Shown: piece after piece, positions 2,841-35,448 of the stretch
Numbering within the stretch: the first letter of the stretch is position 1
Layout of the letters: each line of letters opens with the position of its first letter
Origin: Candidatus Hermodarchaeota archaeon
GTDB taxonomy: Archaea > Asgardarchaeota > Lokiarchaeia > Sigyniarchaeales > SOKP01
DNA length: 62,411 nt
Assembly: GCA_048885705.1 (NCBI GenBank)
Contig: JBHLLJ010000003.1
Location: 1-62,411 of the forward strand
Reading direction: 5' to 3'
Notes under the pieces: generated by a model
Seen by the model: the letters and a program-made list of their open reading frames with translations, nothing else
What the model was told of the DNA's origin: nothing
Database searches by the model: none
Program-made: the position numbers and the translations under genes

Positions 2841-3164
2841 TTATTCCAACCTTTCAATTTTAAATATTACTGGTCGGAACCAATCACTACATCCAGTAAT
2901 AACAGTACCTTTGGCTTTCATTCCCGGTATATTAGCCCCTGAAGCAATTGCTATTATATCATGCCGAATATCAGCCCACGCCCAGTGACAGAATCCCTCG
3001 GGTACCTTCCCGAGATTGTTATCAATTATTATTTCTTGGCCATCTTTAAATGCATCACATACTTTAATATCTTTTAAGCGGTCTTCTATATATTCATCAA
3101 TTAAGTCCTGATTTAACATTCTTTTTATTACAGTTATTTTACATTTTGGTATTTTGGAATTCAT
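2841..3164 (-). CDS. TIGR04076-family small conserved protein
   Basis: 107 aa with CDAFKDGQEIII...PEGFCHWAWADIRHDI...GCSDWFRPVIFKIERLE, matching the family pattern as I recall it. Confidence 0.7.
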   Translation of the reverse strand: MNSKIPKCKITVIKRMLNQDLIDEYIEDRLKDIKVCDAFKDGQEIIIDNNLGKVPEGFCHWAWADIRHDIIAIASGANIPGMKAKGTVITGCSDWFRPVIFKIERLE

Positions 3165-32157: not shown

Positions 32158-32651
32158 TTATACTTCTATATATTCTGATTTTGTTATTACTTCAACCTTT
32201 CCATTCTTAATTGAACATCATTTTCTAATCTGAATCCATCCAAACCTTGTTTATAAATACCAGGTTCGACAGTGAATTCCATCCCATCTTGTATTAATTT
32301 TTCTTTCTAATATTTTAATGAATAACCATCAGTCGGTTTGCTAGCTATTATTGGTGAATCATGTACAGTTAAACCAAGACCATGTCCTACAGCATATGGT
32401 AAACTATAACCTTCTTTTTTTAGCACATTATCGGCTTCTTCATTAATTTTCCAAAGAGGTACTCCTATATCTATTGCAGCTTCATAAGATTCTATAACTA
32501 AATCTCTCATTTTCCGTTGTTCTTCAGAGAGATCTTTAAAACTAATTGGAACTGTTATATCAGAGCAGTAACCTTAAAATTTTGCTCCAAAATCAATTAA
32601 AGCCAACCCTTGTAAAGCAAAAACTCTTACAGAATAAAATGTTATTAAAAA
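32158..32651 (-). pseudogene. remnant of an M24 (Xaa-Pro / methionine aminopeptidase fold) peptidase, 5'-truncated with two in-frame stops and one frameshift
   Basis: My translation is ...ALQGLALIDFGAKF*(TAA 32574-32576)GYCSDITVPISF...YAVGHGLGLTVHDSPII...SLKY*(TAG 32307-32309)KEKLIQDGMEFTVEPGIYKQGLDGFRLENDVQ. A frame shift then continues into IKNGKVEVITKSEYIEV*. The pita-bread metal-ligand motifs are visible, but the N-terminal roughly 150-200 aa are absent. Confidence 0.75.
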
Positions 32652-32713: not shown

Positions 32714-34117
32714 TTAAAGTTGAGATTCATCAATTATAGGCATTTCTTCTGAAGCTAAGTTTTTTTGAATATCATCATCAGATAATTCATATTCTTTTAA
32801 ATTTCCGTTCATAAATTCTTCGTAAGCTAACAAATCAAAAAAACCATGACCACTCAGATTAAATAAGATTACTTTTTTTTCATTGTTTTCTTTAGCTTTT
32901 ATTGCTTGATCAATCGTTTCTTTTATGGCATGTGCACTTTCTGGAGCAGGAAGTATTCCTTCAGCTTTGGCAAATTGAAGACCAGCACTAATTACTTCTG
33001 TTTGATGATGCATTGTAGTTTTAACAATTCTGTTATTATTTAAAATTGAAATAATGGGAGCCATTCCATGGTATCTTAAGCCTCCTGCATGAATTGGGCT
33101 AGGAATAAAAGTATGTCCTAAAGTATACATCTTTACTATAGGCCCTCTCATTGCAGAGTCCCCATAATCCCATCTATATTCTCCTTTAGTTACACTTGGA
33201 CAAGCTCGAGGTTCGACTCCAATTAATTCCATGTCTGGATTCGCTCCAATTAATTTATCTTTGGCAAAAGGAATCATTAAGCCAGCAAAATTGGAACCAC
33301 CTCCAATGCAACCAATTACTACATCTGCTTTATCAATACCAGCTTTAGCTAGTTGAATTTTTGCTTCTTGGCCTATAATAGTCTGGTGTAATAGTACAAA
33401 ATTTACTACACTTCCAAGAGAATATTTTGTTTTTTCACTTGCCATACTATGTTCTAATGCTTCAGATATAGCGATTCCTAAACTCCCTGGATGTTCTTGA
33501 TCTTTTTCTAAAAATTTTTTTCCAGAATCAGTTAGATCGGAAGGACTTGCATATACTTCAGCATTAAAAGCTCTCATTAATATTTTTCTTCCTGGTTTTT
33601 GAAAATAACTTGCTCTTACCATATATACTGTACATTTTAGATTATAGAGATTACATCCATATGCTAAGGCGGAACCCCATTGTCCAGCACCTGTTTCGGT
33701 AACCAATTCTTCTGTTCCTTCTTTTTTTGCATAATATGCTTGGGTTATAGCAGTATTAGGTTTATGTGACCCTGTAGGAGAACACGATTCATTTTTATAA
33801 AAAATTTTTATCTTATCTCCTTCTATACCTAACTCTTTCTCTAATCCCAATGCACGATGGAGTGGACTTGGTCGATATGTTCTAGCAAAAATTTCCCTTA
33901 ATTCCTTAGGGATAGGAATAAGTGGTTCTGATGAAACTTCTTGTACCACACACTCCTTAGGAAAAATAGCAAATGCCATTTCCGGTGGAGCCGGTTTTCC
34001 ATCCATTGGATTTATTAGGGGCGTCATAGGAGAGGGTAAATCTGGTAAAATATTTACCCAATTTTTTGGAATCTCATTAGGTTGTAATAAAATTCTTCCA
34101 GTAAAATTATTTAACAT
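32714..34117 (-). CDS. trpB2: TrpB2-type tryptophan synthase beta-like PLP enzyme
   Basis: 467 aa. SCSPTGSHKPNTAI contains the PLP-lysine motif, and GGGSNFAG is the phosphate loop. The long N-terminal extension is typical of the TrpB2 class. No other trp genes are in the window. Confidence 0.9.
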   Translation of the reverse strand: MLNNFTGRILLQPNEIPKNWVNILPDLPSPMTPLINPMDGKPAPPEMAFAIFPKECVVQEVSSEPLIPIPKELREIFARTYRPSPLHRALGLEKELGIEGDKIKIFYKNESCSPTGSHKPNTAITQAYYAKKEGTEELVTETGAGQWGSALAYGCNLYNLKCTVYMVRASYFQKPGRKILMRAFNAEVYASPSDLTDSGKKFLEKDQEHPGSLGIAISEALEHSMASEKTKYSLGSVVNFVLLHQTIIGQEAKIQLAKAGIDKADVVIGCIGGGSNFAGLMIPFAKDKLIGANPDMELIGVEPRACPSVTKGEYRWDYGDSAMRGPIVKMYTLGHTFIPSPIHAGGLRYHGMAPIISILNNNRIVKTTMHHQTEVISAGLQFAKAEGILPAPESAHAIKETIDQAIKAKENNEKKVILFNLSGHGFFDLLAYEEFMNGNLKEYELSDDDIQKNLASEEMPIIDESQL

Positions 34118-34272
34118 ATTATTTACCTTTTTTATTTACTTTTTCACATCTTGAGATGTGTATCATTAAAAAATTGGAATTCAATATAATTAATGCCCAT
34201 TTAGAAAGAGGATTTAATATTTTAAAGGAAAATATTGAAAAGAAAAAATAAATCTAAATAAGAACCGCTGCA

Positions 34273-34290
34273 GTTGGCTCTATTGCCAAC
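34273..34290 (-). promoter_or_regulatory. hairpin GUUGGC-AAUAGA-GCCAAC overlapping the last Trp codon and the stop codon of the leader ORF
   Basis: It is a perfect 6-bp inverted repeat read from the sequence (plus strand gttggc tctatt gccaac). The UAG stop lies in the loop and the final UGG lies in the 5' arm. T-rich tracts (TTATTTAGATTTATTTTTTCTTTTC on the minus strand) follow within about 10-40 nt. Confidence 0.35.
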
Positions 34291-34330
34291 ACCAAGGCCA
34301 CTGCCAAGACAGGATTCTTAGAGCTGCCAT
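34280..34330 (-). CDS. candidate Trp-rich leader peptide (16 codons: MAALRILSWQWPWCWQ) upstream of trpB2
   Basis: My reverse-complement reading is ATG GCA GCT CTA AGA ATC CTG TCT TGG CAG TGG CCT TGG TGT TGG CAA TAG. That gives four TGG codons at alternate positions, inside a GC-rich island 163-213 nt upstream of the trpB2 ATG. It is too short for the ORF track. Confidence 0.4.
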   Translation of the reverse strand: MAALRILSWQWPWCWQ

Positions 34331-34611
34331 AATATTAAATAAAGAGTTATCTGAAAATATTTAGAAATAGTATTATTTTTTCAAATAAAAATCTTTTGAA
34401 ACTTCCTTGTATTAGTTGAAATATTGCTCTTATCTATAGATATTCTGTAAATGAAAAAAGTAAACAAATTAAAGTAAAAGTACAATCTTCATAATAAAAA
34501 ACAAAATCAATAAATATTTAATGGTTTTAATGGTCGATTCTAAAGAAGAATTGAAAGAGATAGAAAAGGATTTATTTTATAGTTAACTGTTAAAGAAGGA
34601 TAGACTCTTAA

Positions 34612-35448
34612 TTACTTGAAGATCCTTCTTTTAGTGCTTTGCTTCTGAGGATCTTTTTCAATGGTTGTCCCTATTAATTTATTTTTTAGGCTTTCAGCTA
34701 AGTTACCTAGTTTATTGGCTGTAGCAGAAATTTCTTCCATAGAGGCTGTTTGTTGTTCTGCTGATACACTAATTCCTTCTATAGAGTTAAAAGTGGAATT
34801 AATTTTATTAACTACATCACCGATATCTTTATTAGTATCAAGAACAGCTGTTTTTGATTCTTCAGCTAATTTTCGAACCTCATCTGCAACAACCGCAAAT
34901 CCTCTACCATGTTCACCCGCTCTCCCTGCCTCAATACTGGCATTTAAAGCCAGTAAGTTGGTTTGATCAGCAATATTAGTAACAACTCCAATAACTTTTC
35001 TTATATTATTAGTGGCATTTATAGCCTCTTCTGCCTCTTGTGTAATAAGCTGAGTAGAGCTTGCAATCTCTTCTGAGGCAGCGTTTACTTCGCTCGCACT
35101 TGCCGCTAATTCAGTAGCTATATTGGAAACATTTACAGACGCATCCGAACTATCTTTTAATATAATAGATATTTTCAATTCCTGTTTCTGAATTATCTTA
35201 AGTAAATAATAAATAGCAAAGACAACATAACTAAAGGCACTCAGAATTAATATAACTCTAGGAATAGAATCATTAAAAATTCTATAGGCAAATGCAGTAC
35301 AGGCAATTGTAATTGATGTCGATAACAAAATATGCAATAAAATCTTAAAACTTATTGAGTTTTTTTTTAATTTGAATTTCCTTTGAAAAGCTATAAATAT
35401 AGTCGGAAGGATAACGGCTATCATCAAGAAAATTGTTTCGCTGGACAT
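34612..35448 (-). CDS. short methyl-accepting chemotaxis protein (two TM segments plus signalling hairpin)
   Basis: It has the highly conserved MCP tip [36 protein letters not shown] and N-terminal hydrophobic spans. It is only 278 aa with no recognisable HAMP or sensor domain. Confidence 0.8.

Follow-up and report, generated by a model that had tools for sequence, protein, structure and literature searches.

The trpB2 locus and its upstream open reading frame

The DNA analysed here, referred to as the window, is the 62,411-nt stretch of contig JBHLLJ010000003.1 from a Candidatus Hermodarchaeota archaeon (class Lokiarchaeia), and the element in question is a short upstream open reading frame (uORF), rich in tryptophan (Trp) codons, that precedes the stand-alone trpB2 gene on the minus strand. 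The features at the core of the locus are:

32714-34117, minus strand: trpB2, the presumed regulated gene, encoding a TrpB-like pyridoxal phosphate enzyme of 467 aa
34280-34330, minus strand: the uORF of 16 codons plus stop, with its ATG at 34330 and its TAG at 34282-34280; translation MAALRILSWQWPWCWQ
34286-34306, minus strand: the UGG array, four codons that recur every 6 nt (UGGCAGUGGCCUUGGUGUUGG), unique in the window

The trpB2 gene starts with the ATG at 34117 (minus strand), and its product scores 638 bits against NF009057 and 585 bits against TIGR01415 in a profile search, each score exceeding the respective cut-off. TrpB2 is usually regarded as an enzyme that forms Trp, with indole plus serine or phosphoserine as its substrates. 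The Trp codons of the uORF occupy 34306-34304, 34300-34298, 34294-34292 and 34288-34286, such that 4 of the 16 codons specify Trp, compared to a TGG frequency of 1.0% of codons in long ORFs; the pattern TGGN3TGGN3TGGN3TGG has a single occurrence in the window when both strands are read. The initial annotation took this uORF for a candidate Trp-sensing leader, and the positions that it gave for the uORF, the Trp codons, two hairpins, a T6 run and a GGT motif are all accurate on the minus strand. The GC-rich island that it described is likewise real: the uORF patch is 43-47% GC compared to 15-25% in the flanking spacer and 29.4% in the window. No Rfam family matches the window at its gathering score, the segment 34080-34620 giving chance-level matches only (E of at least 6), and a tRNA scan with ARAGORN returned nothing.

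Conservation of the uORF in Lokiarchaeia

The upstream region was compared among 48 Lokiarchaeial (Promethearchaeota) trpB2 loci (designated by L numbers), the TrpB2 proteins of which are 68-93% identical. Forty-one orthologous loci were obtained by a TrpB2 peptide-word scan with one genome per species, nearly all of them labelled as Promethearchaeota or Lokiarchaeia metagenome-assembled genomes, and a scan of metagenomes with a degenerate TGG-array pattern added at least six AT-rich matches. Of the AT-rich metagenome matches listed to this pattern, all six sit upstream of trpB2. A TrpB2 protein search returned matches that are all close Lokiarchaeial TrpB2 proteins with identities of at least 74%. 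Some copies of this Lokiarchaeial locus (TrpB2 75-86% identical to that of the window) are deposited under other labels: L020 (JAGMEL010000010.1), L025 (DATKTW010000128.1), L004, L012, L015 and L024 lie on contigs labelled as WOR-3 bacterium, Nanopelagicaceae bacterium, or Thor-, Hermod- and Hodarchaeota; these odd taxon labels are probably binning or labelling errors.

A Trp-rich short ORF is present on the trpB2 strand at 48 of 48 loci, a strongly positive outcome for the search of trpB2 orthologues that the initial annotation had proposed. The start codon is ATG in 47 loci and GTG or TTG in L034 only. The ORF is 12-28 codons long (most commonly 16) and includes 2-5 Trp codons (mean 3.75). 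The 48 loci encode 44 distinct peptides, in which the N-terminal half varies freely (e.g., MATVRNF, MTLAKNLA and MVTEDILF), while the C-terminal core is WxWxWxW, typically WQWPWRWQ/R, with the stop codon 1-2 codons past the last Trp in 38 of 48 loci. An in-frame ATG precedes the array in the Trp frame in 36 of the 37 loci that could be anchored, compared to 2 and 3 of 37 in the other two frames, and insertions and deletions 5' of the array keep the reading frame. The shorter pattern TGGN3TGGN3TGG is found in 43 of 48 leaders and has only one other occurrence in 405 kb when both strands are counted, a stray array in L032. The distance from the uORF stop to the trpB2 ATG ranges from 112 to 175 nt and is 146-175 nt in 46 of 48 loci; the sequence of this spacer is clade-specific despite its retained length. 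To judge by this pattern of conservation, the uORF is a real, selected element tied to trpB2 across the Lokiarchaeia, and it is very likely translated.

Single UGG codons are lost with retention of the ORF in L016, L018, L034 and the L021 group. In the latter (L021, L023, L025, L027 and L029, about positions 2778-2850), a frame-restoring local change has eliminated both the central Trp codon and the normal stop, leaving a uORF that has two Trp codons only and a different tail and that runs through the hairpin described below to a stop beyond a conserved CA.CGG. This two-Trp uORF is a natural variant bearing on the number of Trp codons needed.

Codon choice in the array suggests a further layer of constraint. 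The Gln codon between the Trp codons is CAG in 39 of 39 cases, against a genome preference for CAA over CAG of 416:72, and the Arg codon is the rare CGU, contrary to the codon bias of the genome. The CAG usage points to an extra constraint at the nucleotide level, and the choice of CAG and CGU against bias is explained in large part by hairpin 1, in that these codons appear to double as RNA structure.

The uORF follows trpB2 rather than its upstream neighbours. In 26 of 48 loci, a Roadblock/LC7-domain protein of roughly 134 aa is encoded directly upstream of the uORF (e.g., L021 2291-2698, assigned to PF03259 with an E of 2e-8 in a domain search run on L021); in the window, the upstream neighbour (34612-35448, minus strand) instead encodes a chemoreceptor-like protein of 278 aa that carries the signalling domain of methyl-accepting chemotaxis proteins; and other loci have neither of these but other genes upstream. 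Synteny upstream of the uORF is thus broken in the window, yet the leader is retained. On the other side of trpB2, immediately 3' of the gene, a 67-aa ORF (32307-32510, minus strand) reads as the C-terminus of a longer enzyme (partial sequence GHGLGLTVHDSPII) and may be a truncated gene remnant.

RNA structure at the 3' end of the uORF

The structural features that overlap or follow the uORF are:

34265-34297, minus strand: hairpin 1, with the inner stem GUUGGC/AAUAGA/GCCAAC at 34290-34273 and a predicted extension CCUUG:CAGCGG, spanning Trp codons 3-4 and the stop
34238-34262, minus strand: a U-rich tract including T6 (34243-34248), a candidate archaeal oligo-T termination signal of the uORF transcript
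34216-34236, minus strand: hairpin 2, an A-U hairpin (AAUAUUUU/CCUUU/AAAAUAUU) of the window's clade, with weak support

The placement of the last Trp codon and the stop codon within a hairpin, as first read from the window, is borne out and is conserved structurally among the relatives. In the clade of the window, the hairpin 1 stem is GUUGGC/GCCAAC, extended by CCUUG paired with CA.NGG, while other clades have the stem GGCGUU/AACGCC or the variants GGCAUU/AAUGCC and CGUUGGC/GCUAAUG. A 42-nt window placed over hairpin 1 reaches -5 kcal/mol or better in 42 of 48 loci. In an alignment of 46 sequences, the GGCGUU/AACGCC register is 89.6% paired, compared to 32-45% with slid partners, and G-U pairs, which fit the sense strand, are abundant. 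The folding of the leader alone is not significant relative to shuffled sequences (z of -1.0 to -1.9); thus, the significance of the leader structure depends on its conservation. By this measure, hairpin 1 is a conserved sense-strand structure with modest covariation support, and its geometry suggests that its formation would depend on the position of the ribosome.

A run of at least five T residues follows the uORF in 48 of 48 leaders, at a median of +31 nt past the stop. In the clade of the window, the T6 at +31 is near-invariant (motif TTATTTTTTC), while in the L020 group and L032 a U5 lies immediately 3' of the hairpin in an arrangement that resembles an intrinsic terminator. Oligo-T is sufficient for termination by archaeal RNA polymerase. 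Hairpin 2 has one compensatory variant (AAUACUU/AAGUAUU in L010), other clades have different hairpins nearby, and the region from the uORF to the palindromic block described below is no more stable overall than shuffled sequences (mean z of -0.37).

Conserved sequences 5' of trpB2 and 5' of the uORF

The spacer nearer to trpB2 includes three further features:

34161-34196, minus strand: a palindromic block of 36 nt, GCATTAAT-TATA-TTGAATTCCAAT-TTTT-TTAATGATA, at -79 to -44 from the trpB2 ATG
34145-34160, minus strand: hairpin 3, or inverted repeat, CACATC-TCAA-GATGTG, at -43 to -28 from the trpB2 ATG
34125-34127, minus strand: a Shine-Dalgarno-like GGT at -10 to -8 relative to the trpB2 ATG

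The block (consensus GCATTAAT-N4-TTGAATTCCAAT-N4-TTAATGA) shows the strongest non-coding conservation of the locus and accounts for most of its invariant non-coding columns. It is unique in the window and, in the window and the flanks of the compared loci taken together, is found elsewhere only before trpB2. The block lies at the same position in L001-L041, L054, L072, L099, L116, L142 and L153. Its two putative stems are 90.4% paired, with 16 cells changed on both sides (e.g., CGUC/GACG in L153, and G-C in L032 and L038), a score matched by 0 of 500 shuffles. The mismatches are of both the U-G and the A-C type, such that the RNA or DNA nature of the block is not distinguished by them: the pairing pattern fits either an RNA stem-loop or a palindromic DNA operator or other protein-binding site. 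The block may be the promoter or operator of trpB2, or a site for a Trp-responsive regulator. A long-range pairing of CAUUGGA with UCCAAU of the block was considered and rejected; it has one compensatory case, in L011, and fails in most clades with no covariation.

The arms of hairpin 3 vary by clade with complementarity kept (CACATT/AATGTG in L007, TCACC/GGTGA in L038, and CATCA/TGATG in the L020-L029 group), and in most clades its loop, from -37 to -34 and centred at about -36, is an A/T island that resembles a TATA box. The location and the complementary arms of this second hairpin, as given in the initial annotation, are borne out; hairpin 3 may instead be an inverted repeat around the TATA-like island of a proximal trpB2 promoter. 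The GG before trpB2 is conserved: a G occupies -10 in 87% and -9 in 78% of 46 distinct sequences.

Two A/T-rich sequences lie 5' of the uORF:

34383-34391, minus strand: a distal A/T element, TTTTTATTT, within the consensus a.tAa.TTTWTAW, about 55-60 nt 5' of the uORF ATG
34356-34363, minus strand: a proximal TATA-like sequence, TAAATATT, at -33 to -26 from the uORF ATG

Upstream of the uORF, the distal element is the one stretch with conservation across every clade of a 42-sequence alignment, and it is a candidate for the B recognition element (BRE)/TATA of a uORF promoter. TAWATA-like A/T-rich motifs are found at a spacing similar to that of the proximal sequence in the clades closest to the window; if TAAATATT is a TATA box, its distance from the ATG would imply a uORF mRNA with no leader or hardly any. 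A Lokiarchaeial promoter consensus was attempted from the window and was uninformative, as the intergenic DNA is too A/T-rich.

A proposed model for control of trpB2 by a leader peptide

On an evenly balanced judgement, the mini-ORF encodes a translated leader peptide that senses Trp-tRNA and that controls, in cis, read-through into trpB2, with a proximal promoter contributing to the expression of the gene. Transcription would start from an A/T-rich promoter just 5' of the uORF. With an ample supply of Trp-tRNA, the ribosome would finish the uORF and leave, hairpin 1 would form, and archaeal termination, either oligo-U or factor-dependent, would end the transcript in the U-rich tract. Under a shortage of Trp-tRNA, a ribosome stalled on the UGG array would cover the 5' arm of hairpin 1 and so keep it from folding, and more polymerases would read through into trpB2. 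This read-through would supplement basal transcription from the proximal trpB2 promoter, which is probably in or beside the palindromic block and may have its own regulator. In some bacterial operons, regulated read-through is similarly laid on top of a basal promoter. For the promoter, stalling, termination, read-through and direction of the response, we infer rather than observe. The three-hairpin switch of bacteria would be no part of this mechanism; if the uORF regulates in cis, a single hairpin with a U-tract is the simplest route.

Several results weigh against this model. Compensatory covariation in hairpin 1 is slight, with two double changes, although few such changes are to be had where the 5' arm is fixed by codons. 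A scan of the window for bacterial-type hairpin-plus-U terminators found none, the T6 of the window lies about 16 nt beyond the 3' end of the extended hairpin 1, and archaeal termination has no known requirement for a hairpin. The initial annotation had suggested that folding of the leader might reveal mutually exclusive structures; none that are conserved were found, clade-wise RNAalifold giving independent local hairpins only. In partition-function folding, the predicted accessibility of the block and of the Shine-Dalgarno/AUG region is unaltered when the bases under a ribosome on a Trp codon or on the stop are masked (means of 0.39, 0.40 and 0.39). A classical three-hairpin switch and a switch based on Shine-Dalgarno sequestration are both unsupported. 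The attenuator model in full is likewise unsupported: of the leader-peptide attenuator first envisaged for this locus, the Trp uORF, the hairpin and the U-runs stand, while the mutually exclusive structures do not.

The transcript data weigh in the same direction. No RNA run contained the sequence of the window itself. The data are low-depth assembled contigs of relatives from eight metatranscriptome-labelled runs, in which the trpB2 coding sequences of L021-, L025- and L034-like strains are covered at 2-7x. No RNA contig over the uORF or leader was found in the eight runs, even at 80% likeness. The contig 5' ends fall at -13 (X31, 99% identical to L025), -12 (X32) and about -11 (X33, on L034) from the trpB2 start, and come from three runs of three different studies and from three strains. 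On the reference loci, the ends correspond to L025 2988, L021 2989 and L034 about 2990 (the trpB2 ATG is at 3001 in each), right at the conserved GG, and the A/T island is about 24 nt upstream of them. The shared end has two readings: it may be a primary start from the proximal promoter, or it may be the edge at which 5'-to-3' decay is halted by a ribosome initiating on trpB2, since such decay, too, should stop 11-13 nt short of the AUG. On both readings, most trpB2 mRNA in situ seems to be without the leader, which weakens a pure attenuator model. Given the low depth, the A/T-poor coverage and the use of contigs rather than reads, regulated read-through atop a basal promoter remains compatible with these data. 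The initial annotation had held that a transcription start downstream of 34280 would speak against a Trp-sensing leader; the contig starts at -11 to -13 touch on this point, while they could also be decay or processing ends in low-depth contigs. Three further runs labelled 'METAGENOMIC RNA-Seq' (X34-X36) were left out, as their contigs of 100-165 kb are likely DNA rather than RNA; their leader-spanning contigs on L021 2874-3114, which would mislead as RNA evidence, were accordingly unused.

Alternative explanations

The main alternative, unlikely on balance, is that the locus consists of two separate units. In this case, trpB2 would be transcribed from the proximal promoter only, with the TATA-like island in hairpin 3 and with the block as a regulator site, while the mini-ORF would be an independent short gene that ends in the U-tract and the product or RNA of which acts in another way, for example as a trans-acting peptide or small RNA comparable to the rhizobial peTrpL/rnTrpL. 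The RNA contigs that begin at -13, -12 and about -11 and leave the leader uncovered favour two units, as does the A/T island at -37 to -34, which is flanked by inverted repeats and lies at roughly the distance of a TATA box from those ends. The block is palindromic, with many invariant positions and with G-U-type and A-C-type mismatches as in a DNA site, and the uORF module is structurally independent of the downstream modules in silico. Yet the island of the window's clade is merely TCAA/TTAA, a poor TATA box; ends at -11 to -13 are equally expected of decay stopped by an initiating ribosome; and the RNA data are low-depth contigs, not reads. Two separate units also leave unexplained a Trp array that stands at a fixed distance before a Trp-synthesis gene at 48 of 48 loci and essentially nowhere else.

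An improbable alternative is that a Trp-activated protein, working like TRAP of B. subtilis, binds the periodic UGG (GGCNNU) repeat as RNA or DNA, and that the ORF is incidental. The four to five triplets recur strictly every 6 nt, as would suit such a site, and nucleotide-level conservation is strong and includes third codon positions (CAG in 39 of 39). This third-position conservation is, however, accounted for by hairpin 1. The start, frame and stop are conserved in the Trp frame only, indels upstream of the array preserve that frame, and UGG triplets are individually lost while the ORF is kept (L016, L018, L034 and the L021 group). The repeat number is also far below the 9-11 repeats of TRAP sites.

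The possibility that the Trp/Arg-rich peptide WQWPWRWQ is itself functional, for example as a membrane-active or modified product, with its proximity to trpB2 a matter of Trp supply rather than of regulation, appears very improbable. Amino-acid conservation is seen in the C-terminal motif, and the peptide may resemble Trp/Arg-rich antimicrobial peptides such as indolicidin. Against this, the peptide is without a signal or leader region and its N-terminus is variable, the flanks examined have no conserved neighbour with an evident role in modification or export (the commonest being the Roadblock/LC7 protein), and the L021 group has just two Trp residues and a different tail.

A relic of a decayed gene, which the initial annotation had named as a competing origin for the GC-rich patch, and likewise a chance ORF, can be set aside with near certainty: other frames of the patch do give hydrophobic peptide-like strings (e.g., LAVALVLAIEPTAAVLI), but conservation of the patch extends to 48 genomes, its start and stop codons being kept in the Trp frame alone, the Rfam and tRNA scans are empty, and the conserved start, frame, stop, array and linkage to trpB2 exclude both.

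Relation to known regulatory systems

In its working, the leader peptide proposed here would be closest to the amino-acid leader peptides of bacteria. Like the bacterial attenuators (e.g., E. coli trpL and the Rfam Trp_leader), it is a short same-strand ORF just before a gene of Trp biosynthesis, with an unconserved N-terminus and with Trp codons near its 3' end that overlap an RNA hairpin and are followed by U-rich sequence. By contrast with the bacterial attenuators, the element belongs to an archaeon and resembles them neither in sequence nor in Rfam searches; the 2-5 Trp codons alternate rather than being adjacent; no conserved 1:2, 2:3 and 3:4 alternative hairpins were found, and the window is without a hairpin-plus-U terminator; and the gene, the co-transcription of which with the uORF is putative, is about 160 nt away, with the palindromic block in between.

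In its possible leaderless and terminator-less form, the element instead resembles the polycysteine leaderless uORFs of mycobacteria (bioRxiv 10.1101/834739), which are similarly very short, rich in codons for the amino acid of the pathway, possibly leaderless, and without a classical terminator/antiterminator. In the mycobacterial case, the position of the ribosome alters the availability of the downstream Shine-Dalgarno sequence, whereas constraint folding reveals no such coupling here and the gene is about 160 nt away.

The (G/U)AG repeats bound by TRAP in B. subtilis are also short-spaced triplet repeats upstream of a Trp gene, but the 4-5 UGG triplets here reside in a conserved ORF with a start and a stop, and they fall short of a TRAP-type array of at least nine (G/U)AG triplets spaced 2-3 nt. 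The trpL of S. meliloti, with its trans-acting peTrpL/rnTrpL (PMC7298713, PMC7968998), demonstrates that a Trp leader can also occur as a short transcript in its own right, with further functions; it is bacterial and a classical attenuator, while for the archaeal element a function in trans would be conjectural. Similarly to the uORFs of eukaryotes (e.g., those of GCN4 and the arginine attenuator peptide), the element would control an amino-acid-related gene from a uORF. The eukaryotic uORFs act by scanning and reinitiation or by a stalling peptide that blocks scanning, whereas trpB2 has its own Shine-Dalgarno-like GG at -10/-9.

Significance

To our knowledge, leader-peptide attenuation is known only in bacteria, and full-text literature searches found no published report of such an element in archaea or Asgard genomes. 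Transcription and translation are coupled in archaea, but transcript termination differs from that of bacteria. The element may, somewhat short of an even bet, be the first ribosome-dependent amino-acid-sensing leader peptide in Archaea, located in the Asgard class Lokiarchaeia, in which a stall on alternating UGG codons would prevent the formation of one hairpin and thereby modulate oligo-U or factor-dependent termination into trpB2 without an antiterminator.

A 51-nt element shared by 48 Lokiarchaeial genomes provides a concrete test case for the question of whether archaea use the position of the ribosome for gene control. Asgard archaea are the closest relatives of eukaryotes; if the model is true, the prokaryotes most closely related to eukaryotes would regulate genes by means of coupled transcription-translation. 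The conserved linkage of the uORF to trpB2 suggests that these Asgard archaea tune the stand-alone TrpB2 to the supply of Trp, which would bear on their amino-acid economy in sediments.

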